Assembly (NCBI GenBank): GCA_963708295.1
Contig: CAVPSJ010000017.1
Location: 224,001-288,000 of the forward strand
Source of the DNA: an uncultured delta proteobacterium
GTDB lineage: Bacteria; Desulfobacterota; BSN033; UBA1163
Length of the DNA: 64,000 nt
Direction of reading: 5' to 3'
Positions within the stretch are counted from its first letter, which is position 1. Every line of letters begins with the position of its first letter. The notes under the pieces are model-generated. The model worked only from the letters and a program-made list of their open reading frames with translations, had not been told where the DNA came from and searched no databases. Made by a program: the position numbers and the translations under genes. This document shows positions 41,592 through 61,688 of this stretch, in pieces.

Positions 41592-41787
41592 GAGATCGAA
41601 TCTTTATCCTTTCCCTATATTTCACGAAAGTTTCCTTTTCACCCCAGACTTTTCCCCTGAAAACGAAGAAATATCTGCACCGCCACCCTGCGGATTTCTG
41701 ATTGGAATATACATATTTTATGAGAGTTGGTCAACCGAAACTTTCAGAAAAAAAAGAGTCAAAGAAGGTGGGCTGGTTGTTCCACCT
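41592..41787 (-). repeat. Repeat A copy 1 (promoter-bearing)
   Basis: Core gaagaaatatctgcaccgccaccctg...attggaatata...ggtcaaccgaaactttcag. Confidence 0.9.
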
Positions 41788-41924
41788 CCTACTAACCCAC
41801 GCCGTTGGTTTGCGGGGAGAAAACCAATTATTTATTGAAAGCAAAAACAGAGGTTCAGGATGAATAGACAACTTTTGCCTCGCTGTGGAGATACTGCATC
41901 CGTTCTTGCGAAAATGAAAGAAGG

Positions 41925-42957
41925 TTAAAAATCATTGATCGAATCAATAAGACTCCTGAGCCTGCCGAAGTCCTTGCGGTTAAAGTCTATCACAAGTCGC
42001 GGCAGATGAATAACATCCGCATCATCCATTTCAGCTTCCAAAGCCTCGGACGCCGCGATTCTTCCCCCGGGCAGAATGATGTCATGAAACTGATCTGTCA
42101 GCTTCTGGATGTCATCGGGGCCGAGCTGAGATGTGAGCCGGATCACGAGTTGGCCATGCACATACCGCATGCTGTGATAGCGGAAATAGAAATGCTGAAT
42201 CTTCTCCACCGCATCATCCACGGAACATACCCGTTCAAAGAGCGCAAAGTCCGATGGGCCAATATAGTTACGAGCCAGGAGCTCTTCCTCGAAGAGCTTG
42301 ATCAGGTGGGACCAGTAGGAACATTCAGGATCGTCCACGAGCACAAGCGGCATGGGATTGCGTTTGCCGGTTTGTACCAGGGTGAGCGTCTCCATCGCCT
42401 CGTCGAGCGTGCCAAAGCCGCCCGGGAAGAGCGCCACGGCATCCGCTTCTTTAAGGAAGGCAACTTTGCGGTTGAAAAAATATTTGTACGTGATGAGCCG
42501 CGGGTTACCCTCGATCACGGAATTCGGCTTCTCCTCGAACGGCAAGCGGATGTTCACACCGAAGGAATGCTCGGCGCCGGCTCCCTCGTTGACGGCCTGC
42601 ATGATGCCTCTTCCTCCGCCGGTGATGACCATATAACCAGTCTCAGCGAGCTTTTTCCCGAAGAGCTTTGCCATCTCGTAGATCGGATCGCCCGGCTGGG
42701 TGCGCGCCGAGCCGAAGACCGTGACCTTGCGAACATTCCGGTAGGAGCCGAAGACCTTGGAAGTGAACCGCATCTCCTTCAGCGTCGTGTTCATGAGCTT
42801 GAGGTCCGCGCCCTCGTCGTCCTCCTGCCCGGCCTTTGAGTGAGGCGATGATCATTTCGCGGACGTATTTCGGCCTCCGGATGCCCCCGGCGGTCTCCAT
42901 CAATTTCTCGATGATCTCGTCAATGGGACCGTTATTTTTTGTGAAATAAATTTTCAT
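41925..42957 (-). CDS. LOG family (TIGR00730) nucleotide monophosphate nucleosidase, frameshift near 42835
   Basis: VFGSAR, TGGG.GIM, YFFNRK, PGGFGTLDE. Confidence 0.88.
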
Positions 42958-43103
42958 GATTTCTCTGTTATCGTGTAGGTACCTGCTTTGATGATAAGCC
43001 TTTTTTAGTCTTTTTTCGAGAAAGATGATGGATTTTCCCCTCTGAACCGTCTCGCCCACTCCATAAAATGGGGACACATACCACTTTCCTTTTTGAGATC
43101 TCC

Positions 43104-43298
43104 GGGGTCGAATCTTTATCCGTAACTTTGCCTATATTTCACGAAAGTTTCCTTCTGACCTCAGGTTTTTTCCCTAAAGCGAAGAAATATCTGCGCCGCC
43201 ACCCTGTGAATTCCTGATTGGAATATATCTATTTTACGGAAATTGGTCAACCGAAACCTTCAGAATGGAAGATTCAAAGAAGCGGGCTGGTTGTTACA
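43104..43298 (-). repeat. Repeat A copy 2
   Basis: Full length, ggggtcgaatc...gggctggttgttaca. Confidence 0.9.
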
Positions 43299-43420
43299 AT
43301 TACAGAGAGCTATGAGGGCGGGGATTGCGTGTGAATAAGCCGTTTAAGCCCACCAATAAAACAGGTCAAGATTAGACGGCGCATTCTGCCCTTCATTCTC
43401 TCATCTCTAAAAATCTCTCC

Positions 43421-44189: not shown

Positions 44190-44419
44190 AAACAAGATTT
44201 GTCTAAGTTCTTAGGTTCTATGTTTTCCCAGTCCCCCTTGCATAATCCACCATACCTTCAAAGTCAACGACAACCACGGACTCATCTCCAACCACCCAGG
44301 CGTCGTGCCCTGTCGGCAGCACGGGGACATCCACTGCTTGTACTCTATTTCGGTACCATCATCCATCCTTACCCTCAAAGTTCCGGATACGTGATACTGG
44401 AAATGAGGAAAGTGGTTCT
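44190..44419 (-). pseudogene. 5'-truncated cupin fragment
   Basis: PHFQYHVSGTLRVRMDDGTE / GHDAWVVGDE.VVVVDF; begins directly at the end of repeat A copy 3. Confidence 0.75.
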
Positions 44420-44620
44420 GGAGTCGAATCTTTATCCTTGACTTTGCCGATATTTCACGAACATTTCCTTCTGACCCGAGGCTTTTTCCCCCTGAAAACG
44501 AAGAAATATCTGCGTTGGCGCCCTGTTGATTCTTGATTGGAGAATACAAATTTTATGAGAGTTGGTCAACCGAAACTTTCAGAAAGGAAGATTCAAAGAA
44601 CTGGGCTGTTTGTTTCACCT
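44420..44620 (-). repeat. Repeat A copy 3
   Basis: Full length. Confidence 0.9.
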
Positions 44621-44733
44621 CGATTTCGCCAGGTATACCTTAGAACTTATTCTTGTCATCTCATCCACTTTACTCAGAGTTAAGGCTCGAGGGTAATAGT
44701 GTCAGTTAAGAGTCTGCTTAACTGTATATGCCC

Positions 44734-45885
44734 TTAAAGTTTCAAAACCTTTCTGGCGATGTTGACCCTCTGAATTTCTGAGGTCCCTTCCAGAATCTCC
44801 TCAAATTTTACCTCACGCCAGTAACGGGAGATCGGATATTCATCCATCAATCCGTATGCTCCATGGATTTGGACCCCCCTGTCAGCACATCGTTTGGCTG
44901 TCTCCGATGCAAAAATCTTTGCAAAAGTGGAAGTGGCAAAATAGTTCTCATCCTGATCTTTTTGCCAGGCAGCTTTATAAACCATCAATCTTGCTAATTC
45001 GATCTCCATCAACATGTCCGCCAACTTAAATCGAATGGCTTGAAATTCACCGATGTTTCTGCCAAATTGCTTTCTTTCCTTCGCATAAGCCAATGAAACA
45101 TCTAAGATGGCCTGAGCCAATCCCACAGAATGGGCAGCAAACCCAATTCGACTGGTCTGGAGAGCCATCAGAAATTGGGAGATTCCTTTATCGGGGTTCC
45201 CCAAAATATTTTCTTTTGGAATACGGCAGTCATCAAAAATCAGCTCCCTAGTCTCTGAGGACCGATATCCCATCTTTTTATACTTCTGCCCAAAATTGTA
45301 ACCGCCCACCCCTGTCGGGATGATGAAATTGGAAGCCTTCTTCTTTCCTTTCTCTCCCACCCCGGTCACGGCGGCAATGATTACCAGACTATTATGCCTA
45401 AGTCCTGCATTGGTGATGAATTGTTTGGTTCCGTTGATAACCCATTCATCTTCCTCCAAGACCGCTCTCGTCTGAATAGCACTGGTATCTGAACCCGCCT
45501 GAGGCTCCGTCAAACCAAATGCCCCAATCTTTTCCCCTGTGGCCAATGGCATGAGCCATTTCTTTTTCTGCTCCTCTGTTCCGAAGGTGCAGAGGAGATT
45601 CATCGCGAGCGTGACAGAATCTAAAAGGGAGTTTCCCAAGGAGGCATCTCCTCGACTGATCTCCTCGATGGCGATGATCATGGAAAGCCAATCTAATCCC
45701 CATCCTCCGCATTCCTGAGGAAAGGGAATGCCGCAAATCCCCAAATCGCCCATTTTTTTCCATACACCATAAGGGAATTGACCGGTTTTATCCAGCTCCT
45801 CTGCGATGGGCATAATTTCTTTTTTAGCAAAATTCCTGCACAAATCCTTGACCATCACTTGTTCAGCGGAAAGGTTAAAATCCAT
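44734..45885 (-). CDS. Acyl-CoA dehydrogenase
   Basis: AFGLTEPQAGSD, INGTKQFITN, R.QFG..I..FQ, QIHG.YG, EGTSEIQR. Confidence 0.95.
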   Translation of the reverse strand: MDFNLSAEQVMVKDLCRNFAKKEIMPIAEELDKTGQFPYGVWKKMGDLGICGIPFPQECGGWGLDWLSMIIAIEEISRGDASLGNSLLDSVTLAMNLLCTFGTEEQKKKWLMPLATGEKIGAFGLTEPQAGSDTSAIQTRAVLEEDEWVINGTKQFITNAGLRHNSLVIIAAVTGVGEKGKKKASNFIIPTGVGGYNFGQKYKKMGYRSSETRELIFDDCRIPKENILGNPDKGISQFLMALQTSRIGFAAHSVGLAQAILDVSLAYAKERKQFGRNIGEFQAIRFKLADMLMEIELARLMVYKAAWQKDQDENYFATSTFAKIFASETAKRCADRGVQIHGAYGLMDEYPISRYWREVKFEEILEGTSEIQRVNIARKVLKL

Positions 45886-46000
45886 ATGTTCTTCTCCTTA
45901 CATGGAAAATAGGTTTTGCCAAATCATTAATTCAAATCCGAGGGGATAAAATGATCGGGAGGAGTTAATGCATCCTGGGGACGGTCCTTATATTCTGATC

Positions 46001-46092: not shown

Positions 46093-46169
46093 ACGGGGCA
46101 CGTTCCGGCCAATGACAATTAGATACAAACTTTTTTATTGATCTCGCCATTTCCGATTATGAGTGTTAG

Positions 46170-46364
46170 AGGGCAAATCTTCATCCTTGACTTTCCCCAT
46201 ATTTCACGAACATTTCCTTCTGACCCCAGGTTTTTTCCCCTGAAAACGAAGAAATATCTACACCGCCACCCTGCGGATACTTGATGGGAATATACATATT
46301 CTATGAAAATTGGTCACCGAAACTTTCAGGAAAAGGAATAAAAGAAGCGATTTGTTTGTTACAC
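46170..46364 (-). repeat. Repeat A copy 4
   Basis: Full length. Confidence 0.88.
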
Positions 46365-46486
46365 GTAATGTTCAACTCAGCATAGTTTGTGAAGCCAACC
46401 GCTATAAAGATGTTTTTTGACAAAGAGTTGTCGATAGGATTTGGGGTTACCCATTTGTTCCCCATTTGTTACAAGGGGTCATTTAG

Positions 46487-46909
46487 TCACTGACTCCCGT
46501 CCGTCGCTGCAAGTCTTTTTAAAATCTCTTTTATCATGCCGTTTCTGTCCTTCCGGATTTCTCCTGCAAGCCGATGAACACGTTCCGGAATTTCGAAATA
46601 TTCGTTACCCCATAAGATGATTTCAAAGAGGATAGGCATGAGATCGATCCCCTTGGGAGTTAATTGGTAAAGGTTTTTTGCCTTATTTCCGGGAAAGGCT
46701 CTTTTTTCGACGATCCCGTTCTTTTCCAGAGTGAGTAGACGATCGGCAAGGATATTCGTCGCGATCTTTTCTTCGGATTGCAAAAACTCGCCGTACGTTC
46801 TTTTTCCTTTGAACATCAGGTCCCGTATGATCAGCAGTGTCCACTTATCGCCCAAGATGTCGAGAGTGGTACTGATAGGACACGTCGATCTCCTGGTGAG
46901 TTTCTTCAT
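46487..46909 (-). CDS. HxlR-family winged-helix regulator
   Basis: RSTCPI...LDILGDKWTLLIIRDL, IATNILADRL, Y.LTPKG. Confidence 0.92.
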   Translation of the reverse strand: MKKLTRRSTCPISTTLDILGDKWTLLIIRDLMFKGKRTYGEFLQSEEKIATNILADRLLTLEKNGIVEKRAFPGNKAKNLYQLTPKGIDLMPILFEIILWGNEYFEIPERVHRLAGEIRKDRNGMIKEILKRLAATDGSQ

Positions 46910-46928
46910 ACTTAAAGAATATACGAAT

Positions 46929-46978
46929 TACTTGCATAAAACAAGTAGATGTTTTATATTACTTGCAATTCGCAAGTA
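46929..46978. promoter_or_regulatory. Two palindromic operator sites, probably for HxlR
   Basis: tacttgcataaaacaagta and tacttgcaattcgcaagta between divergent genes. Confidence 0.7.
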
Positions 46979-47050
46979 TGTCGCCGGGAGAACTCATGGT
47001 CATAAAGCCGGATATGTGCTTCAGAAAATTGATTGTCAGAAGGAGGAGTT

Positions 47051-48094
47051 ATGGTTATGGAAAACAAAATACGGGAAAAGGCTCTGAAACTTGGATACGA
47101 GGACTGCGGTATTATTAGAGTCGGCGCCTTGGCCGGTTATCGCGAAAAGCTGGAGGAGCGCATCTCGCGGATACCCATGGGAGAGAAAATATATGGGCGC
47201 TATAGGAGTTATGCGGACCCCTCGGCGGATAATCCCGAGATAAAATCCATCATCGTCGCTATCGTTCCTACCTACAGGTACAACGTGCCCGGCGAATTCG
47301 ATGGCGTCTACGGCAAGGCCTACATGTTCGATGGCAGAACGGACGAACAGGCGCCCTTTTTCAGCAAACGCAGGGAATTCTCCACGTTTCTCGAAAGCCT
47401 CGGTCTTACATGCATGTTGGGCAGCAGTTTTGGAATCCCGGCGCCAGCCCGCTGGGCAGCGTATCAGGCAGGGCTCGGCATCATCCGCCAGAATAATTTC
47501 TTCTACACCAAAAACGGGTCATATAATCACATAGAGATGTTCGCAGTAGATCGGGAGCTCGAACTCATTCGCGACGTGAAACTCAAAGAGTGCTCGAAAG
47601 ACTGCAACAAATGCATCGGAGCCTGCCCTACCCATACGCTGAGCGCACCCTATACCATGTCGATGATCGGGTGTGCTAGCTTTCAGACTTCCATCTCGGC
47701 GAATACGGGAATGGCCGTACCATCTCCTGAGATGACGGAGCAAATAGGTTGCAGGCTGTACGGCTGCGACGTTTGCCAGGACGTATGCCCCTTTAATAAG
47801 GGCAAATGGACAGGCGGTGAGGACTTCCCGGGGCTTGAGGCGCTGGCGCCGTCAATGCGCCCGGAAAGTATCATGGAGATGAGCTATGATGAGATCGGCC
47901 GCACGTTGGCTCCCAAATATTGGTACATAAAGCCGGAAAACCTCTGGAAATGGAAACTGAACGCGCTGACCGTCATGATGAATGGCTACAGCGAGAAATA
48001 TGAAGCGCCAATAAAGCTCGGGCTTGAAGACCCCAACGAAACTGTGCGCGACTTCACGCGCGGCATCTGCTCGAAGCTGGGAATATCGTTTTAA
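47051..48094 (+). CDS. QueG-like (epoxyqueuosine reductase-like) FeS/cobalamin protein
   Basis: A..AGLG....NN, C.KC..ACPT, YGCDVCQDVCP.N. Confidence 0.8.
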   Translation: MVMENKIREKALKLGYEDCGIIRVGALAGYREKLEERISRIPMGEKIYGRYRSYADPSADNPEIKSIIVAIVPTYRYNVPGEFDGVYGKAYMFDGRTDEQAPFFSKRREFSTFLESLGLTCMLGSSFGIPAPARWAAYQAGLGIIRQNNFFYTKNGSYNHIEMFAVDRELELIRDVKLKECSKDCNKCIGACPTHTLSAPYTMSMIGCASFQTSISANTGMAVPSPEMTEQIGCRLYGCDVCQDVCPFNKGKWTGGEDFPGLEALAPSMRPESIMEMSYDEIGRTLAPKYWYIKPENLWKWKLNALTVMMNGYSEKYEAPIKLGLEDPNETVRDFTRGICSKLGISF

Positions 48095-48155: not shown

Positions 48156-48295
48156 GGGTCGAACCTTCTTATATTTCACAACAGTCTTCTTCTGTGCGCA
48201 GGGTTTTTTCCTGAAAATGAAGAAACATTTGCACCGCCACCCTGTTGATTCTTGATTGGAATATACAAATTTTGCGAAAATTGGTCAGCCGAAAC
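48156..48295 (-). repeat. Repeat A copy 5 (shortened)
   Basis: gggtcgaacc...caccgccaccctg...ggtcagccgaaac. Confidence 0.85.
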
Positions 48296-48978: not shown

Positions 48979-49046
48979 AAGTCACCCCCAAAAAAGCAGA
49001 AAAGATCGAGGAGGATATATTTTGTGATAAGAGGCCATTTGTACTC

Positions 49047-49188
49047 AAAGTGAAGAAAGATCGACGTCGCCACCCTGTCTGGATTGTCGATTGATGATTG
49101 TTGTTTGGAATATACAAATTCTGTAAAAATTGGTCAACCGAAACTTTCAGAATGGAAGATTCAAAGAAGTGGGCTGTTTGTTACACCT
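49047..49188 (-). repeat. Repeat A copy 6 (partial, heptamer expansion)
   Basis: cgccaccctg...ggaatatac...ggtcaaccgaaactttcagaatggaagattcaaagaag. Confidence 0.85.
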
Positions 49189-49245
49189 CGTGTCTTTACT
49201 CTAAGTGGGTCAGAGAAATAGAATTCGAACCCAACCTTAATTTCT

Positions 49246-50069
49246 CTAACGCCATTCTACCGCCGGTGGATTCCTCAGTGGCATCCGCACAAACTTGAGT
49301 TTGGGGTATCCGACCATCAGGACTCCGAAGCACTTGTGACCTTCCGGTAAGTTCAGGGCTTCCACCAAAGGTGGATAAAAAATTGTTGCGGTCATCACAT
49401 ATCCCGCCCAGGTTGTCCCCAGGCCCAAAGGCAGTGCAATCAATTCTGCGTAGGCGAGGGCTAAGACGCAATCCACCTGGGCCAACCGAGCGTTTTCAGC
49501 CGCATGAGCGATAATGAGGTGCGGGGCATTGCGGCATATTGGATCTTTTCCCCCATCCCATAATGCAACCACCCGATCGAAATGAAACGTTTTAGCCAAA
49601 GCCGGGGCCTCTTTGATTGTCACACGCATCCAATCCACGACCAAGCCTGAAAGGCGCCTTACCTCTGTCTTATCCTCAATTACCAAAAAATGAACCGGTC
49701 GGGCATTGTGTGCGGACGGAGCATAGCCTGATACTTGAATGAGTTTGTTTAGCTTGTCACGTTCAACAGGGTCGTCCTTGTAATTTCGAATGGAGCGTCT
49801 TGATCGAAGAAACTGTTCAGCTTGCTCCAGATCGATGAGCAGCTCTTTCCTGATTTGAGGACAATCTTCGGGCCTCATGGTATGAAGTGCCAGTGCCCCA
49901 GAGGGACATACAGCCACACAGTGACCACAGTTGATGCATAACTCTTCGGCATCAGCTATCAGGGTTGGCACCGAGTCCTGCTTCCCCCATCTCGATCAGT
50001 CTCCGGCCACAAGCCTCCACACAGATCCCGTCCCGGTTGCACTTCTCTGGGTCAACATAAAAAAGCATT
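49246..50069 (-). CDS. Nitroreductase with N-terminal 4Fe-4S domain, frameshifts near 49985 and 50060
   Basis: VDPEKCNRDGICVEAC / CINCGHCVAVCP, RSRRSIR, APSAHN, LGTTWAG. Confidence 0.85.
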
Positions 50070-50100
50070 TCATCCTCCGTTTGATGCGAGTTCTTAATGG

Positions 50101-50228
50101 TGAAAACGAAGAAATATCTGCACCGCCACCCTGGGGATTCTTGATTGGAATATATCTATTTTATGAAAATGGGTCAACCGAAACTTTCAGAAAGAATGAA
50201 TCAAAGAAGCGGGCTGTTTGTAACACCA
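50101..50228 (-). repeat. Repeat A copy 7 (partial)
   Basis: tgaaaacgaagaaatatctg...gggctgtttgtaacacc. Confidence 0.88.
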
Positions 50229-50394
50229 CATAGAGTGAAGATTGGTTATTAAAGGTATTGAAGATTTACAATTGGAAAAGATACTAGAATGTATACAGGG
50301 GGTGGTAAAATGGATCCAACGTGTATTCTCCGCAGTCGATGAATCTTTTGCAAAGAAGTAATCAGCGTATTGAAACGAAAATGTCCGGTATTTG

Positions 50395-50976
50395 TCAACG
50401 AAGACTGAATAGTTCTTTCATGCAGGACCAAGCTTCTGGTGAAGACCAATCCCTTTGTCCTATAATCTTTCCTACCAATATCCCTTCTTGATCGACTAGA
50501 AATATTTGAGGAACCCAACCCCTTACTCCATATTGGTCCATCGTCTTTTCCTTCAAGAGTAAGAGGACGGGAAGGGTGATCTTGTTTTGATCGATGATCT
50601 TTTGAGCGGCTGTCTTTCTTTCTCCATCAATGGTAATAAAAAGGAAAACTAACTTATCTCTTTTACCTTGGGAGAATTTTTCAAGAGCTAACAGCTCTTC
50701 TCTGCAAGATTGTCACCAGGTGGCCCAAAATACGATGAGAACAGGTTTCCCTCTAAAGTCACTAAGAGAAATTTGTTTTCCATCCAGCAACTCCTTGAGT
50801 GAAAAAGCAGGAGCTTCTTTCTTTTCCTGAGATCTCTGAACACCAAAAGAATTACAGGACGGACATTCCGGTGGAGAGGGAGAAGCAGCCCTTACGATCT
50901 GAAGGCAAGGGATGAGCATAATAGTCATTCCTATCACGATTGAAAGCGAAAGAACGATTCTTTTTTTCATCTCCAC
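50395..50976 (-). CDS. TlpA/redoxin-family thiol:disulfide oxidoreductase selenoprotein (UxxC), 193 aa
   Basis: FWATW-TGA(50713-50715)-QSCREE continues in frame to VPQIFLVD.EG...G.RDW and stops at 50395; perfect 7-bp hairpin after the UGA. Confidence 0.92.
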
Positions 50977-51864: not shown

Positions 51865-51892
51865 AAAGCGATTTCTTGACTCGATCCTCCGT

Positions 51893-52399
51893 TCACCATA
51901 TGAATCTTAATCTTTCTCTCCATGTCTTTGGCAGAAGATTCCCCACAGCTTTCCAGTGACGGACCTCAGAAGGCGCGCACATCACGACCGCCGCAAAGAA
52001 TATCATTGGAAGGTCAAGGAAGATGGTTACAGAGGCCAATGTGTCTCCGAACGCTCCAAAACAACCGCAATCAACGCTACGCCCTTGTAAAAACACAATG
52101 GCCTTGGCAATGAAAAAAGATAAGCTCAGCAGGCCAATCCCCAAAGCCGATAATCGGGTTAACACTCCGAAAAGTAAACCTAATCCACACAGCAGTTCAA
52201 TGAAAGGCAAGGCCAGCCCAAAAGGACGGGCTAAATAGAAGGGCAGGATAACAAAGAAGTAAACGGCCTGCACCGAGTAACGCTCAATATCAACCATTTT
52301 CCCAAAGGCCGCTACAAGAAAAGAAACTGCCAATATCAAGCGAAAGCAGAGAACAACGGTTTTTGCGGTTTTCTTACGTGAATTTTGAATCATATTCAT
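51893..52399 (-). CDS. MauE/DoxX family membrane protein, paralog of 8646-9194
   Basis: GK.VDIERYSV, PFIELLCGLGLLFGVLTRLSALGI, CGCFG. Confidence 0.9.
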   Translation of the reverse strand: MNMIQNSRKKTAKTVVLCFRLILAVSFLVAAFGKMVDIERYSVQAVYFFVILPFYLARPFGLALPFIELLCGLGLLFGVLTRLSALGIGLLSLSFFIAKAIVFLQGRSVDCGCFGAFGDTLASVTIFLDLPMIFFAAVVMCAPSEVRHWKAVGNLLPKTWRERLRFIW

Positions 52400-52503
52400 C
52401 TCCTCGCCCTATTTCCTGTCGCTATTAGAAAATCAAGCGATTGGGCATCAATATTGAATTGGGAAAGAATTTGGGTATAGGTCTACACTTTTCACTGGGC
52501 TAC

Positions 52504-52705
52504 GGGATCGAATCTTTATCCTCAATTTTGCCTATATTTCACGAAAGTTTTCTTCTGAAAACAAAGAAATATTTACACCGCCACCCTGCGTTGATTGTCG
52601 ATTGCTGATCGAAGATTGTTGATTCTTGATTGGAGTATATCTATTCTATGGAAATTGGTCAACCGGAACTTTCGGAAATAAAGAGTCAAGAAGTGGGCTG
52701 TTTGG
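52504..52705 (-). repeat. Repeat A copy 9 (internal deletion plus heptamer expansion)
   Basis: gggatcgaatc...gggctgtttg. Confidence 0.88.
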
Positions 52706-53233
52706 ACTTTCTAGTGATTCCTTTTTGGTCTTTTTCTCTTTCTGGAAAAATACCGATTCAATCATCTTTTGTGCAGCTATCACACCAGTAAAATTCATAA
52801 GCTTCCAGAGTCGCATTTTTACAGCACTAAACAGGTAAAGCATGTCATCCAAAGGAGAAGAAAGACTTCTTAGAAGATTTCTCAACTTAGTCCCATCTTC
52901 TGGAGAGATATCGACAAATTTTACCCCATACGGATAATAAGCGCCGTCCTTACTCAAATCACTATCCTTCCAAGCCACCTTAACCACCGCTTTAATTGTA
53001 TCCAATTCAGAACCTAAAGAAAAAAAGAGTTTCAAACTTAGATATTGATTTACATCCATTTCTTCGGGGAAATAAATCAGAAACCCACCCTCGCTGATAT
53101 TGCCAGTGTGAGCAATGGATGATCTGATTTGAGAATATTCTATCGGCAGATGGACATCAAACCTCGGATATCTTCTGTTCTCTGAGTCAATAGCTTCAAT
53201 CCGTGGCGTGGTATCTTGTTCCCTTGTTTCCAT
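52646..53233 (-). CDS. PilZ domain protein; C-terminus runs into repeat A
   Basis: RRYPR and NISEGG motifs. Confidence 0.85.
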   Translation of the reverse strand: METREQDTTPRIEAIDSENRRYPRFDVHLPIEYSQIRSSIAHTGNISEGGFLIYFPEEMDVNQYLSLKLFFSLGSELDTIKAVVKVAWKDSDLSKDGAYYPYGVKFVDISPEDGTKLRNLLRSLSSPLDDMLYLFSAVKMRLWKLMNFTGVIAAQKMIESVFFQKEKKTKKESLESPNSPLLDSLFPKVPVDQFP

Positions 53234-53600
53234 TTGTTTTCGTCCTGTCCAAATTCGGGTTTAAGAAACTTCCTATTTGGCAGAGCACCCCCTTATTTCT
53301 CTTGTTCTCCCGATAAACTGCTCACAAATGAAGATTGTTCGCAATTAGTATACCAAGAATTAGGTTATATTCTTTCATTCGTACAACTACTTAGAATTAT
53401 AAGTTTTCTCTCAAAATCGGCTGCATATAGTCCAAAGGCAAGTGTATGCATTACCCTACGATGAGCTGCACAATTTCGTTCACAGAGACGGGATCAACTC
53501 CTCGGTGAAATTATGGGAGTTTCCTCAAAGAAGTGTAATTTCTGGACTGTCTTCATGGAGAGTAAGGCAAAGCCATTTAGAGGAATATAGAAAAGCATTT

Positions 53601-53768
53601 GGGGTCGAATTTCTATTCTCGACTCTGCCTATATTTCACGAAAGTTTCCCTCTGACTCCTGGCTTTCTTTCCATGAAAGCGAAGAAGTATCTGCGCCGCC
53701 ACCCTGATGATCGTTGATTGGAGTATATAAATTTTATGAAAATTGATCAATTGAAACTTTCATCAGAA
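53601..53768 (-). repeat. Repeat A copy 10
   Basis: ggggtcgaat...cgccgccaccctg...gaaactttca. Confidence 0.85.
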
Positions 53769-53772
53769 CATC

Positions 53773-53802
53773 TTGACAATATACAAGGTTTGTATATATA
53801 CT
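53773..53802 (+). promoter_or_regulatory. TA operon promoter with palindromic operator
   Basis: ttgaca, then atatacaa-ggt-ttgtatat, then tatact. Confidence 0.65.
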
Positions 53803-53825
53803 TTATCAAAAGGGAGGTATTGAAG

Positions 53826-54071
53826 ATGAAGTCAAGTACGGTGAATATCTCTTTCAGCGATGACCTCCTGAAGAAGATAGATCAAACGGCACGAGAAGAG
53901 TCTCGATCACGGTCGGAACTCATTCGGGAGGCGGCGCGAGGATACATTGATCGAAAGCGTCGGTGGAAGCAGATATTTGATTTCGGCAAAATCAACGCCG
54001 CCAAGAAAGGGATTGCCGAGGCCGATATCGAGACTGAAATTGCTGCCTACCGCAGAGAGAAAAAGAAATAG
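53826..54071 (+). CDS. Ribbon-helix-helix (CopG) antitoxin
   Basis: VNISFSDDLLKKID..A.EE.RSRSELIREA. Confidence 0.88.
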   Translation: MKSSTVNISFSDDLLKKIDQTAREESRSRSELIREAARGYIDRKRRWKQIFDFGKINAAKKGIAEADIETEIAAYRREKKK

Positions 54072-54479
54072 ATGCTCAAGGTCGTTTTGGATACGAATGT
54101 CCTGATCTCGGCCATTCTCTTCGGAGGTAAACCCAGAAAGATTTTGGAGAAAGCCATCCGTGGGGAGATACGATTGTGTCTATCAGAACCAATGCTGGAA
54201 GAACTCAGTGGGGTTTTGCGAAGGTCGAAATTTGACTACTCTCCTGAGATGATCCAATTCATCCTCACGGAACTGATGGGTATTGCAGATTTCGTGAATC
54301 CATCGGAGACCATTCACGTAGTATTGGAAGATCCCGAGGACAACAAGATCCTGGAATGCGCGGTAGAAGCCAAAGCGAATTATATCATTACTGGAGATTC
54401 TCACCTTCTGAAGCTAAGCAGGTACCTCCATATAGAAGTCCTGAATGCGGCTGCTTTTTTAGAAAAAACCGAGGCGTGA
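54072..54479 (+). CDS. PIN-domain toxin (TIGR00305-like)
   Basis: VVLDTNVLISA, DPEDNKILECA, IITGDSHLL. Confidence 0.92.
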   Translation: MLKVVLDTNVLISAILFGGKPRKILEKAIRGEIRLCLSEPMLEELSGVLRRSKFDYSPEMIQFILTELMGIADFVNPSETIHVVLEDPEDNKILECAVEAKANYIITGDSHLLKLSRYLHIEVLNAAAFLEKTEA

Positions 54480-54481
54480 TC

Positions 54482-54766
54482 ATGATCAAGAACGGTATGC
54501 GTCCTATTCATCCAGGCGAGATATTGCGTGAGGATTACATGGTGCCGCTGGGGCTGTCAGCCGTCGCTTTGGCCCACGCGTTGGGTGTGACGCCCGCCCG
54601 CATCAACGACATTGTGCGGGAACGGCGCGGCATCACAGCGGATACGGCGTTACGTCTGGCGCGGTACTTCGGAACGGATGCGCAATCGTGGATTAACCTG
54701 CAGACCGCATGCGATCTCCGCGTGGCTTCGCCGACACCCTCAGGATTGACGATTGATGATTGTTGA
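54482..54766 (+). CDS. higA: HigA-family antitoxin; C-terminus replaced by repeat A sequence
   Basis: RPIHPGEILRE, ITADTALRLARYFGT..W.NLQ. Confidence 0.85.
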   Translation: MIKNGMRPIHPGEILREDYMVPLGLSAVALAHALGVTPARINDIVRERRGITADTALRLARYFGTDAQSWINLQTACDLRVASPTPSGLTIDDC

Positions 54767-54868
54767 TTGGAGTATATAAATTTTAGGAAATCAAGGGGAC
54801 ATTGGTTCTAAAACAACTTGTGACATATCAATCAGGGATTTGGGGTTGAACCTTTATCCTTGACTTTG
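54729..54868 (-). repeat. Repeat A fragments (copy 11: 54729-54790 and 54842-54868)
   Basis: caccct...gattgttgattggagtatataaatttt; ggggttgaacctttatccttgactttg. Confidence 0.75.
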
Positions 54869-55854: not shown

Positions 55855-55937
55855 GATCGCTTCCTCCCCATATTCAATTTTTCATCCTCGAATGTCTTGC
55901 GCACGGCAGTTATTCAGATGATAAGAATGCTTAATAT

Positions 55938-56110
55938 GGGGTCGAATCTTATGGGCTTCGCCTATACTTCACCAAAGTTTCCTTCTCACCCCGGCTTTTT
56001 TCCCCTGAAAGCGAAGGAACATCTGCACCGCCACCCATTTCATTGACAATTGATGATTGTTGATTGGAATATTACAAATTTTGTGGGAGTTGGTCAACCG
56101 AAACTTACAG
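55938..56110 (-). repeat. Repeat A copy 12
   Basis: ggggtcgaatc...ggtcaaccgaaact. Confidence 0.88.
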
Positions 56111-56190
56111 GGCAAAGGTTGAGTGCTTGCTAAAAATCCGCACATTTCCTATACTCAACGAAAGAAGAATTCGAACACAGGGGGTAACGA

Positions 56191-56796
56191 GTGAGCAGGC
56201 TTAAGGAGTTGCGTACGCCGATTTTCTGGGCGGAAGGCCATCCGGGCAAACTCAACCGGGAGAGGTGGGTCATCGAGGTGAGCGGTCTCTGCGCGAATCC
56301 GAAAGAATTTACCTGGCAGGAACTGATCGCATTACCGAAATCGATTGCCGACGCACGCCTGACGAGTGTCACCAGATTCTCAGTGCGAGGGAGGTGGGGC
56401 GGCGTGAAGGTTGCCGATTTACTCGAAGCGGTCCAGGCTGACTCGGGAAGCCATTATGTCCGTTTCTGGTCTTACAGGATGGTATACGATACCACCCTTC
56501 CTATGGATGTGGCCCTTCGTGAGAGAACGCTTCTCGCTTACGAGTTCGACGACGAATATCTCGAAGAAGATTACGGAGGCCCTGTCAGGGGATTTTGCCC
56601 TTATCTGTGGGGCTACAAGTCAGCGAAGAGTGTTGTTAAGGTCGAATTGCTGGACCGTTATATATCCGGATTCTGGGAACAGCGGGGATATCCCGACGAT
56701 GCCCTCATTACGGCCGGAAAAGTCCGTGACATGAACCAAGGCGGTCGCCTCAGGTCTATTCCAAACGGGGAAGTGATACGATTTCTTGATGAATAG
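56191..56796 (+). CDS. Sulfite oxidase/MsrP-like molybdopterin-binding domain protein
   Basis: W...VSGL..NP..FTW.EL..LP, YGGPVR...PYLWGYKSAK, GFWEQRGY. Confidence 0.85.
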   Translation: MSRLKELRTPIFWAEGHPGKLNRERWVIEVSGLCANPKEFTWQELIALPKSIADARLTSVTRFSVRGRWGGVKVADLLEAVQADSGSHYVRFWSYRMVYDTTLPMDVALRERTLLAYEFDDEYLEEDYGGPVRGFCPYLWGYKSAKSVVKVELLDRYISGFWEQRGYPDDALITAGKVRDMNQGGRLRSIPNGEVIRFLDE

Positions 56797-56838
56797 GTTT
56801 TCCTTGGAGAAAGGGTCCGCTGTCGAATTTTATTCTTC

Positions 56839-58104
56839 TTATTCCGGTTTTCCCACGTACGTCTGGACGGATGACGCCAGCCGCCCCCGTACCTGCCACC
56901 ATATGGCCAGACCCAGCGGCACCACCGCCGCAGCCGCCGCTGCGAGCCCCATGATCCCATAACCGCCCGCAGCATACACCACCCCGCTCCCGATCTGGCT
57001 GGCTCCCGAGGACAGGTTCAAGAGCAAGTCATTGAATCCCTGGGTCTTCGCCCTTTCCCCGGGCGAGAGTTGATCTGCCAGCAGGGTGGAGCCGGCCACA
57101 TAAGCGAAGTTCCAGCCCAGCCCCAGGAGGAAGAGGGCGACTACCAGCGGCAGGAGATTGACGGAAGGCGCCGCCATCAGGCAGGAAAGGATCATGACTG
57201 TCGAGCCCAGGATCATGACCGGGCCTCGCCCCCGCCGGTCGGCCATCCTCCCGGAGAGGACGGAGAAAGCGTACATCCCGAAAGTGTGGGCGGAGATCAC
57301 CAGCGACACGGCGGTCAAAGGGTGCTGGTGAACCTTCATATGAACCGACGTGATGGACATGGGCACCACCATCACCATCTGGGCAAAAGCCATGGTGACC
57401 ATGGCCACGATCACGCCCGGCTGCCGAACGATCTCCGCGAGGGAACGGGTCGCCTCCCGGGGGATCGACGCGGGATGGATCCGGGCGAGCTCCCGCCCGA
57501 CATCGCGGGGGTCCGGCTTCAGTCCACTGAAGATCAGGATCGCCGCCACAACCAGGACGGCGCCACCGACGATGTAAGCCCCCGCCAATTCCGGGTACCC
57601 GGCCCACGTCGCCAGCTGCCCCATCGGGCCCACCAGGAGCGGCCCGAAGATGGCACCCACCGTACTCCCCAGTACCACGTTCGAAATGGCCCGGCCCCGC
57701 TTCGCCGGCAGATAAACCTCGGCGGCGGCAAAGCGACCCAGGTCCACGGCCGACCTGGCCATGCCTACCAGGACGAGTCCGAACAGGAAGAAGGGGAAGG
57801 AACGATCGACCACCGCGGCGACCGCGATGACGGATCCGACAACCCCGACCACCTGTCCCAGTGCCAGCCCCAGTCGCCGTCCGATCCGCTCCATGGTGAA
57901 GCCCCAGACCATCGCCCCGCAGGCCTGTCCTACCACATAGAGGCCGCCGGGCACCCCGGCCATGGCCTGTTTTCCACTCAGGTCAACGCCGACCAGGGCG
58001 TTGACGGTAAAGGCGGCGATGAAGCCAGCGGAGCTGAGGCTCTGGGACAGGAAGAGTACGATAGTAATCTTCCTGGCGATGCGGTCGTAATCCTTCATCT
58101 TCAT
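56839..58104 (-). CDS. MFS transporter
   Basis: About 12 TM segments, RIGRR.G, GR..DRRGR; the upstream ORF extension is repeat A sequence. Confidence 0.9.
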   Translation of the reverse strand: MKMKDYDRIARKITIVLFLSQSLSSAGFIAAFTVNALVGVDLSGKQAMAGVPGGLYVVGQACGAMVWGFTMERIGRRLGLALGQVVGVVGSVIAVAAVVDRSFPFFLFGLVLVGMARSAVDLGRFAAAEVYLPAKRGRAISNVVLGSTVGAIFGPLLVGPMGQLATWAGYPELAGAYIVGGAVLVVAAILIFSGLKPDPRDVGRELARIHPASIPREATRSLAEIVRQPGVIVAMVTMAFAQMVMVVPMSITSVHMKVHQHPLTAVSLVISAHTFGMYAFSVLSGRMADRRGRGPVMILGSTVMILSCLMAAPSVNLLPLVVALFLLGLGWNFAYVAGSTLLADQLSPGERAKTQGFNDLLLNLSSGASQIGSGVVYAAGGYGIMGLAAAAAAVVPLGLAIWWQVRGRLASSVQTYVGKPE

Positions 58105-58115
58105 GAATGTGCTTT

Positions 58116-58205
58116 GGGGTCGAAATATCTGCGTTGGCACCCTGTTGATTCTTGATTGGAGAATACAAATTTTATGAGACTTGGTCAACCGAAACTTTCA
58201 GAACG
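58116..58205 (-). repeat. Repeat A copy 13 (large internal deletion; promoter and GACCCC end kept)
   Basis: ggggtcgaa joined to atatctgcgttggcaccctg...ggtcaaccgaaactttcag. Confidence 0.88.
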
Positions 58206-58308
58206 AAAGGGAAGGGCAGTAGCAGGTTGACTTTGTCGCTGATGATTATCGAAGGAAATAAATAAAAAAGGCAGAGCCTCATTGACCCTGCCTCTTCCGC
58301 TTTCAATC

Positions 58309-60021
58309 CTATCCTTTTGAACTGAAAGGCAGGAGCAGATGAGATACATGCTTCGATGTGTGATGGATGGTATGTACCGTTTCCTTCGGGTTAGGCAAAT
58401 GGCTCCAAACCGGCCATGCAAGAGTCATGTCCAGGCCATCCTTTTGCATTGGATAATCGCAACCCCAGACTTCCAGCTTGATTTTGTGCCCCGCCTTAAA
58501 GAGGTAAGCGATGGGTCGAATGGCAATGGCATATTCATTTATCTCTCCTGGGACGACAGGCACAGAACGCCTGTGAGGATGGTAGGGCTGCCAAAACTTC
58601 GATTTATCCTTATCAAGTTCTCGATGAGATGCTTTCAGCCAACCTCTGCTTAATACAAACTCGGAGCCATCAGGTCTCACGTCTTTCAGTTTGACTATCC
58701 AATTTGCGTCGTCGGAACTGATCGAAGCGTAGAGGGTTAGCGCAATAGGGCCGACGACTTCTGTATCTTTCGTCAATGCCTCGGTAGCATATTCAAGGTA
58801 CTTGGGCGGAGGATTCATGGGATAGATATTGTTAACAACAGGGAAAAGGGGTTTATAATCGAAGCTGTCAGAGGACTCTTCAGTGCTGGGCGGAGCCTCA
58901 CTGAGAAGGTTGTTGGCACTCAGGTAATACCTAGCCCACTTCGCGTTCTTGGGCGGCCACTCATCATAATGCCGCCACTCATCGGCAACCGTAACCCATA
59001 CGCGAATCGGCGGTTCGTCCATGATCCCGGTATCAATCCCTTTTAGCCAGTAGTCATACCATCTCAGGATATCCTCATGGTATTCGTAGAACGGCCTCTC
59101 AGGAACTTTAGGACGGATCACGAGTTTCTTGGGTGCTTTTATCCCCTCCCACGCGTTAAAAGCCCCCGGCAGATGCATCGCGACGGGATAGTGCTGCATC
59201 TCTGAACCCAGGTAGGTTGGCACCTTGATTTTTCCCAATTTCGTATGCGCTGACCTTTCCCAGTAGAATGGGCCATCGAAGGGATGGAGCATAAAGTCGA
59301 AAGTCCCGGGGTCATGGTTAGGAGCGATCAGCGTGCCGTAAAGATAGGGACTTTTGTTGAAGGGCTCGGTATTTTTCATTTTTTCTACGAGACGCTTCAA
59401 CTTGTCCTTGCTATACATTTTTTCCGATGCCGGCTTAGCGTTATTATCATAGATATTATTCCGCAGCGTACGGGTCCATGTCGGGGAAAAGATTCCCCCG
59501 TGATAAACGGTATCCCGGTACAGATCCGTCCAGCCGTCGTGGGGATTGATGGCCTTCAAGTGAGGAGGGCGTTGAGCTGCTACCAGATATTGAATGATCG
59601 CAAACCAGGATATTCCAATCATGCCCACCTTACCGTCGCACCACGGCTGCTTGGCAATCCACTCCACGAGGTCATAGCCATCCTCCTGTTGCTCCTTGGC
59701 AAACCAGGTCCGAAACTCCCCGCCTGACTGGCCTGTCCCCCGATGATCCGCAATAATGTGCGCGTATCCCCTGGTTACCCAAAATTCACTATCCCCCGCC
59801 TCTATGTGAGCCATCTCCGAAGTGAACCCGTGACCTTTTGGTAACTTAAGGGCTTGAACATCCTTACTGTACGGGCACATGCTCAAGAGTGCAGGGAATT
59901 TCCCTTTTGAATCGGGACGACGAACATCGACAGCTACCTTCACACCGTCCCGCATCTTAACGTAAACATTCTTTTCAGTCTTGACTTTGTGGACAGGCTT
60001 TGATCCTTCCTTTGCTTCCAT
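58309..60021 (-). CDS. CocE/NonD family hydrolase
   Basis: MRDGVK...D, PYSK, DGYDLVEWIA.QPWCDGKVGM.GISW. Confidence 0.93.
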   Translation of the reverse strand: MEAKEGSKPVHKVKTEKNVYVKMRDGVKVAVDVRRPDSKGKFPALLSMCPYSKDVQALKLPKGHGFTSEMAHIEAGDSEFWVTRGYAHIIADHRGTGQSGGEFRTWFAKEQQEDGYDLVEWIAKQPWCDGKVGMIGISWFAIIQYLVAAQRPPHLKAINPHDGWTDLYRDTVYHGGIFSPTWTRTLRNNIYDNNAKPASEKMYSKDKLKRLVEKMKNTEPFNKSPYLYGTLIAPNHDPGTFDFMLHPFDGPFYWERSAHTKLGKIKVPTYLGSEMQHYPVAMHLPGAFNAWEGIKAPKKLVIRPKVPERPFYEYHEDILRWYDYWLKGIDTGIMDEPPIRVWVTVADEWRHYDEWPPKNAKWARYYLSANNLLSEAPPSTEESSDSFDYKPLFPVVNNIYPMNPPPKYLEYATEALTKDTEVVGPIALTLYASISSDDANWIVKLKDVRPDGSEFVLSRGWLKASHRELDKDKSKFWQPYHPHRRSVPVVPGEINEYAIAIRPIAYLFKAGHKIKLEVWGCDYPMQKDGLDMTLAWPVWSHLPNPKETVHTIHHTSKHVSHLLLPFSSKG

Positions 60022-60100
60022 GGCTCGTTCCTCCTTTCGCCTGCTGTGTGGGTGCGGAGGATACGCCGACAACAGCGGCTTGGTAGCGCTGATCTATTTC

Positions 60101-61300
60101 CTATCTGCTCCAGGCTGGTCTGGGGTAAACAAAAGGTGTTGTGGCTATGCTCTTGGGCCACACGAGTTCTACCCTGCCACCCTTCGTCTGGACAGCAAAA
60201 CAGAAAGGAGGGGGCAATCCTCTCTTGTCGAAGGTAATTCCTTTTCCGTAAGGCAAATCGAATTTATTTAACCTCAGATAATCCCTTATCTTCGTATTGT
60301 CCAATGTCCCCGCCCCCTGCACGGCCAACTCCAGTGTCTTCATCCAGCTGTAGGCAAAGCCAAAAAAAAGCGGGCCTGCCGGGATTCCCAGCTTCGCTTT
60401 TGCGCCTTCATTGATTTCACGGTTACCGGCAAACGGGAGACGATCATGCCAGAACGCGCTGTTGACCACATGGTTGCCGTCCTCGCCCAGCTCCTTCATC
60501 CAGGCGGGGACAATGGAGGCCAATTGCTGGAAGACGAGTTTGGGATTGTAATTCAAAGCCTTGGCGGCTCTCATGATCATGACGGCATCATCAAAAAAAC
60601 TAAGGCAACAGAGGATCTCAGCTCCTTTGCTTTTGGCCTTGCTTACCAAAGGAGTGGCATCGCCCAAGGGGAGATTATACATCTCATCGACCACCACCGG
60701 TATCCCTCGTTCTTCCATTGCCTTGATGATGTTCCCTTTCGCGGATAAACCCATCACGTTATTCGCCGTCAACAGGGCGATCGATTTCGGCCATTCCGGC
60801 CTGGGAATCAGGTCGTCAAGAACCCCGTTTAAGGACAAATAGATCCAGTCGCTCATGAGAGGCGGGCTGGCAAAGCTGTAAGTAAAACCCTGTTCAAACG
60901 ATTTCATGTGGGCGCCCATTCCAATAAAGACCTTCTTATACTTCTCCACGAGAGGCATCAACGCGACATTCGACGTTCCAGGATAGCCTCCGAAAACCAG
61001 GTCCACCGTATCGATGGTGATAGCCCTCTCATAGTAAGTGACCGCTTCCTCCGTCGTGCCCTGGTCGGGATAGACGGTCATTTTTACAGGACGCCCCAAA
61101 AGCCCTCCCCTCCGATTGACGTCCTCCACCCAGAAATCATACCCTTGCTTGATCCATCTCGATGTTTCCGTATGTATCCCGGTCGCCGGCAATGACCCTC
61201 CTATCTTGATCGGCTGTGCGGATGCCTCTGGATAGCCACAGACCAGGAGAGTCAATAGGGCAAGAATAATTGCTGCAAAAGCGATCTGTCTTCTTTTCAT
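60101..61300 (-). CDS. Branched-chain amino acid-type ABC substrate-binding protein
   Basis: Signal peptide, PIKIG.SL..TG, N.RGGLLGRPV. Confidence 0.9.
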   Translation of the reverse strand: MKRRQIAFAAIILALLTLLVCGYPEASAQPIKIGGSLPATGIHTETSRWIKQGYDFWVEDVNRRGGLLGRPVKMTVYPDQGTTEEAVTYYERAITIDTVDLVFGGYPGTSNVALMPLVEKYKKVFIGMGAHMKSFEQGFTYSFASPPLMSDWIYLSLNGVLDDLIPRPEWPKSIALLTANNVMGLSAKGNIIKAMEERGIPVVVDEMYNLPLGDATPLVSKAKSKGAEILCCLSFFDDAVMIMRAAKALNYNPKLVFQQLASIVPAWMKELGEDGNHVVNSAFWHDRLPFAGNREINEGAKAKLGIPAGPLFFGFAYSWMKTLELAVQGAGTLDNTKIRDYLRLNKFDLPYGKGITFDKRGLPPPFCFAVQTKGGRVELVWPKSIATTPFVYPRPAWSR

Positions 61301-61486
61301 TCCAGCCTCCCTTCTTTTCGTCATCCCGAGAGAAGGTTCTTTCCCCCTTTACAGGGCGGATAGATCATTCTTCCGAGACGGTTGAGTTCTTTTCATCGCC
61401 CAAATTCTTTCCAGGAAATTATCCTCCTCCCCCTTCATTCGACTACTGACTCCACTCTGGCCTCGGGTAGACCAGAGGACGGATTT

Positions 61487-61688
61487 GGGGTCCCAATCTT
61501 CATCCAGGACTTTGCCTGTACTAACACGAGCATTTCCTTCTGACCCCAGGTTTCTTTCCCGAAAAACGAAGAAATATCTGCACCGCCACCCTGTGGATTG
61601 TTAATTGGAATATATCTATTTTGTGAAAATTGGTCAACCGAAACTTTCAGAAAGAGGGACTCACAGAAGCGGGCTAGTTGTCACACCC
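61487..61688 (-). repeat. Repeat A copy 14
   Basis: Full length. Confidence 0.88.

Follow-up and report, generated by a model that had tools for sequence, protein, structure and literature searches.

A 64-kb stretch (C17:224,001-288,000, here called the window) of the genome of an uncultured delta proteobacterium (G000, a 4.95-Mb assembly) carries a series of unrelated accessory genes separated by copies of one repeat. The question it raises is what this repeat is, and how the genes between its copies are gathered and exchanged. An earlier note, made from the letters of the window, had listed 14 copies and proposed a gene-capture array in which the repeat acts both as insertion site and as expression unit. 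We find that the window holds part of a genuine system of arrays, spread across a lineage, in which promoter-like repeats alternate with exchangeable cassettes; it is integron-like in outcome but is neither an integron nor a decayed integron cassette array (CALIN). All genomes compared were metagenome-assembled genomes (MAGs), in which misassembly at repeats is possible; G010 (2 contigs) and G003 (10 contigs), the most contiguous, gave the same picture.

Repeat-finding in the window placed the family at 41.6-61.7 kb and, as had been noted before, found no copy in the first 41 kb. We built a profile of 222 positions from nine full minus-strand copies and searched the whole G000 assembly with it (nhmmer, E<=1e-3). 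This gave 29 matches, 27 of which, copies or fragments, lie within C17:265,581-315,537, all on the minus strand. Matched against the whole genome, the repeat thus clusters in one array and in a single orientation. All 14 starts in the earlier note fall in profile matches (table 1). Because 13 further copies follow past the end of the window, copy 15 beginning 45 nt beyond it, the array is about 50 kb long and not 20 kb. The copies are 0.8-4.6 kb apart, with genes filling the spaces, and the shared orientation of 27 out of 27 is not due to chance. Elsewhere in G000 we found a partial copy at C4:588,201-588,351 (+) and a weak match at C12:110,638-110,708 (E 9e-7).

The same arrangement is found in relatives. 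BLAST with one copy gave matches in 18 of the 36 other genomes examined from this family (among them 11 of 14 congeners of G000) and in 0 of 24 genomes from other families; matches per genome were taken from the best 13 candidates, so that per-genome counts are lower bounds. A 19-nt word from the core of the repeat occurred in 68 stretches of a species-representative collection and in at least 120 metagenome contigs. Going by the titles of the sequence records, from which the Thermodesulfobacteriota label was taken, almost all of the 68 stretches belong to Thermodesulfobacteriota, delta proteobacterium or Syntrophales MAGs, and five bear other labels. One of these five, L043 (labelled as a Dehalococcoidia MAG), has two repeat copies and is 98.6% identical over 4.6 kb to locus L027 of G004, the result of either a binning error or a recent transfer. 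Run on all gathered DNA, the profile gave 539 matches in 212 stretches, none of them with mixed orientation. The four arrays of G010 comprise 22, 4, 5 and 13 copies; three of them share a strand, and one lies opposite. Arrays reach up to 50-70 kb, with several per genome, in a family of uncultured wetland and peat Thermodesulfobacteriota. Copies within a genome are as alike as copies from different genomes in every segment of the repeat, so that there is no concerted evolution within a genome; the repeats look as if they had been drawn from one shared pool.

A full unit measures ~210 bp and consists, in minus-strand order, of a ~45-nt 5' arm, a ~50-nt core, a stretch of 7-nt units and a ~120-nt 3' arm. 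The near-invariant core contains a 9-nt dyad (GAAAGTTTC, centred near -42) that abuts TTGACC, followed after 17 nt by TATATT, and points at the next gene. The 7-nt units after the -10 box vary in number (0 to ~4 extra), and the 3' arm, which closes with a conserved tail, contains the dyad once more in inverted form. Consensus frequency is ~0.9 at positions 46-78 and mostly 0.7-0.9 elsewhere, and any two copies are on average 85% identical over core positions 46-95. Both coverage and class counts identify the core as the part kept in nearly all fragments and truncated copies: the main classes among 183 unique copies are full (58), 5' arm plus core (63), core plus 3' arm (24), core with little else (25) and 3'-arm pieces (13). 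Variants with an internal tandem duplication of the -10 region or the upstream box occur at L011:14097-14295, L005:5369-5603 and L098:7864-8093, and one internal-duplication variant is present in two different G010 arrays.

A consensus scan called a promoter-like site in 12 of the 13 repeats of the scanned range. Of 292 open reading frames (ORFs) of 100 aa or more inside 17 arrays, 222 run in the direction of the repeat. The ORF that comes next after a repeat shares its orientation in 121 of 159 instances, its start lying a median of 126 nt past the repeat (quartiles 54-236). For the window itself, our own count of copies followed by a co-oriented gene agrees with the 11 of 14 given before. 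We consider it probable that the core is a good sigma-70-type promoter aimed at the next gene, which makes the proposed role as expression unit plausible. Contigs from an RNA dataset cover the cargo at 90-99% identity; such contigs cannot reveal transcript starts. Of the public sequencing runs, none contained half of the words of a 10-kb query (a third at most, as contigs); joints between repeat copies in the contigs of four runs have short sides and may stem from other copies in the community, so that they carry no weight here.

If the core is a promoter, the repeat might simply be the shared promoter and operator of one regulon, with no role in recombination and with arrays that are ordinary variable islands. 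The promoter-like core, the dyad at ~ -42 with its inverted copy in the leader, the co-orientation of most genes and a cargo rich in detoxification and redox functions would all suit a regulon. A regulon would, however, be dispersed, whereas 27 of 29 copies lie in one array and a 13-nt box upstream of the -35 element has all 13 of its exact copies in G000 inside that array; allowing one mismatch, 13 copies were found outside it, not clearly above chance. The uniform orientation in 212 stretches, conservation over 200 nt that goes beyond the needs of an operator, and the breakpoints and clean indels inside repeats described below also disagree with this explanation, which we regard as unlikely.

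The conserved ~120 nt downstream of the promoter-like core raise the possibility of a structured cis-regulatory RNA (riboswitch or leader), or of a small RNA gene duplicated together with its promoter, and one copy folded as RNA did reach a z-score of -2.4. RNAalifold on 55 full copies from several genomes nevertheless returned 2 pairs and -0.04 kcal/mol, with no conserved fold or covariation. Single-copy folds as RNA or single-stranded DNA (z ~ -2) showed no end-to-end pairing and no hairpin on either strand. Rfam, one of the checks proposed at the outset, gave nothing relevant for the window at gathering thresholds or for one copy even at E<=5. The repeat has no terminator, and many copies that look functional lack most of the leader. 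A structured RNA is therefore very unlikely. A coding repeat was ruled out, as indels break every frame in the 55-copy alignment (judged by eye).

The layout is that of an integron. As in integrons and CALINs, long arrays of unrelated accessory genes lie between co-oriented members of one repeat family, toxin-antitoxin (TA) cassettes are among the cargo, cassettes are reshuffled and shared between species, and the repeat is chimeric, each half following its own neighbour. The array could for these reasons be read as a CALIN with an atypical attC, the more so as relatives have true integron integrases (IntI) and G000 itself retains a C-terminal IntI fragment (C4:1,007,421-1,007,618). The attC boxes have the consensus RYYYAAC/GTTRRRY. 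On both strands of the 51-kb array we found 0 complementary pairs of such boxes at a distance of 45-150 nt, and two other 51-kb stretches used as controls gave 0 and 1. In place of an attC hairpin with R boxes, the array repeat has ~210 bp of conserved primary sequence. Each unit also has its own predicted promoter-like core rather than depending on one cassette promoter (Pc), cassettes often comprise 2-3 genes, some of them on the other strand, crossover points are not fixed, and no IntI adjoins the array. According to Cury et al. 2016 (PMC4889954), integron cassettes are mostly promoterless, rarely carry a promoter and are expressed from the one Pc.

The distribution of IntI also differs from that of the repeat. 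An intact IntI (TIGR02249 above cut-off) was present in 11 of the 37 relatives searched, whereas in G000 the best TIGR02249 match, found on a contig other than C17, covers a fragment of 87 aa and scores 86 bits, the cut-off being 265. C-terminal fragments only were found in G000 (as above), G010 (C1:720,402-721,045) and G003 (C3:782,919-783,275), far from the arrays, and the repeat profile had no match around those of G000 and G010. Same-genus genomes with a full-length IntI (n=3) had 0, 3 and 1 repeat matches, and those with at least 13 or 14 repeat matches (n=7) had no IntI or one partial IntI, a small and related sample; in a scan of 22 other family genomes, too, the repeat-rich ones were without an intact IntI. 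We therefore give the CALIN explanation next to no weight. A second repeat family (table 1) has a conserved ~25-nt box and 7-nt units, and only the 3' tail module in common with the array repeat. In L224, seven copies of it make up an array at a distance of 5.6 kb from an intact IntI gene.

Could the repeat instead be one of the miniature inverted-repeat transposable elements (MITEs) or the remnant end of an insertion sequence (IS)? It is a repeated non-coding element of MITE-like size, and promoter-bearing MITEs exist, Correia elements being an example in a commentary (PMC3575422). That commentary also names ERIC. Correia and ERIC elements are likewise short non-coding repeats that supply promoters to their neighbours, but they are dispersed in both orientations and have terminal inverted repeats. 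The array repeat has none of these traits: its copies are clustered and co-oriented, and folds of either strand show no terminal pairing. A distant-match search of plasmid and phage collections gave no match to the repeat, viral contigs had 0 matches to the 19-nt core word, and no linked transposase was seen, although no search was aimed at DDE, Y1 or IS110 transposases. A MITE or IS end is accordingly a most improbable source. Clustered regularly interspaced short palindromic repeats (CRISPR) were ruled out as well (~210-nt repeat, gene-filled spacing of 0.8-4.6 kb, best CRISPR model match E 3.9). The box scan, the folds and the spacing thus agree with the initial view of an element that is neither attC nor CRISPR-like and has no terminal inverted repeats.

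The closest published concept that we found is that of putative mobile promoters (Matus-Garcia, Nijveen, van Passel 2012), whose mode of movement is given as unknown in the commentary (PMC3575422). They too are highly similar upstream regions in front of non-homologous genes, found across taxa and without a match to an RNA family, and the array repeat, with 85% identity in its core, falls under their definition (>=80% identity over >=50 nt upstream of non-homologous genes). As outlined there, however, the concept includes neither arrays nor recombination at the repeat; putative mobile promoters occur mostly in pairs, with no clustering reported in that outline, whereas here dozens of copies form co-oriented arrays. 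A literature search over titles and the openings of abstracts found no description of such arrays.

These arrays have cargo in common, in reshuffled order. We counted 194 blocks of >=400 nt and >=80% identity between genomes, a number that includes duplicates from overlapping loci. Cargo blocks recur between species at 85-97% identity, in other order and in other arrays, and orientation relative to the repeat was kept in 270 of 278 blocks (>=450 nt, >=85% identity). The HTH-cupin cargo has counterparts of 91-93% identity in three genomes and the DUF4442 cargo one of 94% in another genus, all of them next to different neighbours. The block encoding an HxlR regulator and a 4Fe-4S protein is flanked by repeats in G010 and G003 as well (92-95% nucleotide identity, other neighbours), and copy 4 is co-inherited with this upstream cargo in G010 at ~90% identity. 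A selenocysteine redoxin gene is held in common with a G010 array (86% nucleotide identity), a MauE/DoxX gene with two other genomes (89-93%), and an RHH-PIN TA pair with a G010 array, where it has the same orientation relative to the repeats (87%). Cargo order thus differs among related genomes, and some of the breakpoints fall inside the repeat.

Breakpoint statistics rest on BLAST ends and on partly overlapping loci. Where blocks ended within repeats, upstream ends were concentrated at profile positions 42-59 and downstream ends at 77-115, which correspond to the two edges of the core. Pairs of copies with only the upstream flank in common (n=76) were 94, 88, 84 and 79% identical over positions 1-40, against a background of 78, 70, 71 and 63%; from position 41 onward they came to within ~3-7 points of background, and were nearly equal to it at 51-70. 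Pairs with only the downstream flank in common (n=315) were at background level at positions 1-30 and 3-14 points higher at most positions from ~31 to the end, with near-background values at 61-70 and 111-120. The arms therefore travel with the neighbouring cargo, the 5' arm with that upstream and the 3' arm with that downstream, and crossovers are spread along the repeat, most of them in the core.

Empty and filled alleles gave a similar result. We scanned relatives for such alleles, which yielded 14 cases, and compared a 33-kb G004 contig with G010. Two reciprocal clean indels set one core repeat (positions 52-114 or 51-107) in one genome against two or three repeats flanking 4.1-4.4 kb in the other, with a 5' boundary that goes with the cargo upstream and a 3' boundary that goes with the cargo downstream. 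Three further indels have a repeat at the junction with crossovers elsewhere (~114 and 200, or ~59). The gene-capture reading of the earlier note thus holds in part: cargo is reshuffled in relatives with some breakpoints in the repeat, but the crossovers are not fixed and 9 of the 14 indels have no repeat at the empty junction. Neither genome-wide scatter, nor an IS or MITE end, nor a fixed cargo order, the three outcomes that the note had set against its own proposal, was found.

The explanation that we place first, holding it with about equal belief and doubt, sees in the repeat a portable promoter/leader module which doubles as the recombination point of an integron-like cassette pool. A double-stranded module of ~210 bp would head each cassette of hypervariable, co-oriented arrays, and a crossover between two co-oriented copies would delete, insert or swap the DNA between them. 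Such an exchange, RecA-type homologous and seeded in the invariant core, would leave each arm with the cargo next to it (5' arm upstream, 3' arm downstream), every cassette retaining a promoter, and cassettes would pass between species out of a shared pool. Exchange between co-oriented copies would explain both the chimeric repeats and the classes of partial copies, and the uniform orientation would follow because single-crossover integration of a circle always yields direct repeats. No contigs with overlapping ends, as circular cassettes would give, were present among those gathered. The graded, case-dependent crossover points favour homologous recombination, and an invariant core stretch of 31 nt fits it, being long enough to seed RecA-type exchange. 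Between homologous and site-specific exchange we lean towards the former, judging the chance that it is homologous to be about even.

Several observations weigh against this explanation. Outside the core, copies are 70-85% alike, which makes them a poor substrate for RecA-type exchange. Conservation of the promoter spacer and the surrounding ~200 nt goes far beyond the requirements of a promoter, a hint at recognition by a protein. Copy 1, with which the array ends, has only a convergent gene downstream and none in its own orientation that it could drive, and the second repeat family is oriented opposite to its genes in L224. Cassettes are 85-97% identical between genomes, a range that overlaps with the 83-93% of the best-conserved syntenic chromosomal genes (in the block at window 1-5361) and exceeds the 64-79% of the other flank (to relatives, over the 12 kb beyond the array); the cassettes are thus at the upper end of the chromosomal values or higher. 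Identity alone is therefore no proof of recent transfer, for which shuffled order and patchy distribution are stronger evidence. Of the nine indels whose empty junction lacks a repeat, three involve one and the same 2.4-kb insert, and one repeat-plus-cargo unit is centred in a 10-nt non-repeat palindrome that is uninterrupted in G010, which indicates that other processes also remodel the arrays.

Because the arms are only 70-85% alike while 200 nt are conserved, we retain a trans-acting enzyme as the main rival. The repeat would then be a site-specific recombination site with an attP-like core and arms, served by an unlinked recombinase or by nuclease breaks, and the promoter would be a passenger. 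We hold this to be possible but doubtful. A conserved primary sequence of ~200 nt that neither folds nor codes would fit such a site, as would the strict orientation, and the copy classes (core, 5' arm plus core, core plus 3' arm, full) mirror the logic of attB, attL, attR and attP. Tandem integrative elements at one att site have attP-like junctions, which are direct repeats of core and arms. The array resembles them in having the core in all copies and partial copies like attL, attR and attB, but its units have no integrase in or beside them, there is no tRNA or other target gene (no tRNA or tmRNA in the window or the next 40 kb), and the crossovers are spread along the repeat with no fixed point. 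The pdif modules of Acinetobacter plasmids are accessory or TA modules bounded by a short site on which a housekeeping recombinase encoded elsewhere acts. Discrete modules bounded by a recombination site are common to both, but pdif sites are 28 bp long and alternate in orientation, whereas the array sites are ~210 bp long and all point one way.

A search for a recombinase gave little in favour of the site-specific alternative. No Phage_integrase (tyrosine recombinase) match lies within C17:260-330 kb, where serine recombinases and DDE, Y1 and IS110 transposases were not searched for, and none was found at the array edges of G000, G010 and G003. Ten tyrosine-recombinase ORFs, out of 16 Phage_integrase matches in G000, were compared by tblastn with ~220 mostly repeat-bearing loci and matched two of them, L151 and L178.

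For the form of this alternative that relies on nuclease breaks, a cassette with a UPF0213-type GIY-YIG gene is a candidate. It lies in the array past the window (table 1). Among cassettes of the sampled arrays it has the widest distribution (5 genomes), a rank that it shares with an ImmA/IrrE-type TA antitoxin gene. Orthologues (79-86% identity, across genera) occur in 18 of 37 family genomes, usually as a single copy. Gene and repeat occur together in 14 genomes, the gene alone in 4, the repeat alone in 5 and neither in 14; since the genomes are related, this table overstates the link and is not independent evidence. In 12 further contexts the gene adjoins either repeat family in five, two of them with the array repeat within 700 nt and three with the second family within ~300 nt, but seven have neither within 8 kb. 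UPF0213 proteins, moreover, have no known function.

A broader proposal, which we offer tentatively, is that the arrays are a gene-capture platform of double-stranded, promoter-carrying sites that depends on a lineage-specific trans factor (for example breaks by the GIY-YIG nuclease) and does the integron's job where IntI has decayed; arrays of the second family would be sister arrays. Among well-understood systems, integrons alone stockpile and reshuffle cassettes of single genes. The arrays of this family hold detoxification, redox, transport and TA cassettes from a cross-species pool, without integron parts and each with its own apparent promoter. If the exchange is homologous, they would show how a conserved regulatory module can serve as movable homology from which a gene bank like that of an integron is built up; with a dedicated enzyme, they would represent a new recombination system. 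By either mechanism they would provide a concrete case of promoter mobility and a class of variable loci that integron finders will miss.

The chromosomal surroundings suggest that the location is old. The block at window 1-5361 is syntenic in G010, G004, G003, G009, G012, G020 and G026, at 81-93% identity even across genera. In G010, G004 and G026 it lies within ~7-22 kb of an array in which nearly all cargo is different. A conserved block near arrays with differing cargo suggests an old array hotspot with fast cargo turnover, of which the block may be a conserved anchor.

Cargo was annotated with Pfam on 46 array ORFs (table 1), which bore out the heterogeneity of the genes between copies. 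Cargo of the whole array includes two nitroreductases, an old-yellow-enzyme type reductase, two S15 peptidases, an ABC-GGDEF protein, an MBL-fold protein, a methyltransferase, a class A beta-lactamase-family protein, HTH-cupin, DUF4442, HbpS, Usp and NnrU proteins, two lytic transglycosylases, a small GIY-YIG protein and a PNPOx protein; several ORFs have no assigned family. The redoxin/TlpA-like gene had been read as a selenoprotein gene, and this holds: it has a single in-frame TGA, at codon 88, which opens a UxxC motif. It is a selenoprotein cassette, the next TGA, at codon 194, being the likely stop. The other of the two most widely shared cassettes, the HTH-ImmA/IrrE gene (L050:1300-3021; homologues in G003, G009, L048 and L055), adjoins a core-only repeat and is mostly found with a DUF4411 (PIN-like) partner.

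Table 1. Repeat copies, cargo genes and related features. Plain coordinates are positions in the window; profile positions refer to the 222-position repeat profile.
Feature	Position	Strand	Description
Repeat copy 1	41581..41789	-	full length, profile 10-222, E 3e-61; TTGACC-17-TATATT at 41734-41706
Repeat copy 2	43096..43309	-	full length, profile 4-219, E 8e-65; promoter-like site 43250-43222
Repeat copy 3	44410..44622	-	full length, profile 10-221, E 3e-64; promoter-like site called
Repeat copy 4	46161..46367	-	full length, profile 11-219
Repeat copy 5	48158..48295	-	without 5' arm, profile 56-208
Repeat copy 6	49046..49189	-	5' arm and core, truncated 3' arm, profile 11-138
Repeat copy 7	50102..50230	-	5' arm and core, profile 10-138
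Repeat copy 8	51658..51870	-	full length, profile 7-220; served as query copy
Repeat copy 9	52496..52711	-	full length; expanded run of 7-nt units after -10 box
Repeat copy 10	53590..53815	-	full length, profile 5-222
Repeat copy 11	54726..54790	-	core remnant, profile 72-122, weakest (E 5e-7); no promoter-like call
Repeat copy 12	55930..56157	-	full length, profile 11-219
Repeat copy 13	58122..58210	-	core only, profile 41-129
Repeat copy 14	61477..61696	-	full length, profile 4-222
LOG / lysine-decarboxylase-like	41925..42794	-	Pfam PF03641
Acyl-CoA dehydrogenase	44734..45885	-	Pfam
HxlR regulator (-) and divergent 4Fe-4S protein (+)	46487..48094	mixed	Pfam
Ferredoxin-nitroreductase	49246..49971	-	Pfam
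Selenocysteine (UxxC) redoxin/TlpA-like	50395..50976	-	Pfam and in-frame TGA reading
MauE/DoxX membrane protein	51893..52399	-	Pfam
PilZ-domain protein	52646..53233	-	Pfam
RHH antitoxin and PIN toxin pair, plus HTH protein	53718..54766	+ (opposite strand)	Pfam
Molybdopterin oxidoreductase domain protein (+), MFS transporter (-)	56191..58188	mixed	Pfam
S15 X-Pro dipeptidyl peptidase and periplasmic binding protein	58309..61324	-	Pfam
Carboxylesterase	61931..63679	-	Pfam
UPF0213-type GIY-YIG gene, 131 aa	L002:3976-4368 = C17:311,976-312,368	-	directly behind truncated repeat
Second repeat family	L224:7113-13341		
Second repeat family	G000 C5:139,038-148,473		
Second repeat family	G000 C4:638,753-640,420		

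Other repeated or mobile elements were seen near the array. Just downstream of repeat copy 4 lies a GC-rich palindromic element (window ~45968-46141), at which the depth of wetland and peat contigs spikes (up to 1671), with many loose ends at 46001, 46033 and 46082; it looks like a separate, very abundant repeat of the repetitive extragenic palindromic (REP) type. Short dispersed repeats of ~90-220 nt, unrelated to the array repeat, occur at window 3103-3320 and at ~17819-18045 and 19515-19610 of L002, and match many contigs of relatives at 72-95% identity. The first 41 kb of the window contain diverged direct repeats (9512-14052 and 20540-39212), a pair 2,894 nt apart with 72-81% identity and a triple ~9 kb apart with 66-98% identity, which look like paralogous gene blocks. 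The claim that the window contains no recombinase or transposase stood as far as linked tyrosine recombinases are concerned, but missed a mobile group II intron outside the array, at window 14337-14890 (+), where three Rfam models match in a row (D1-D4 and domain V/VI; 128, 62 and 45 bits).

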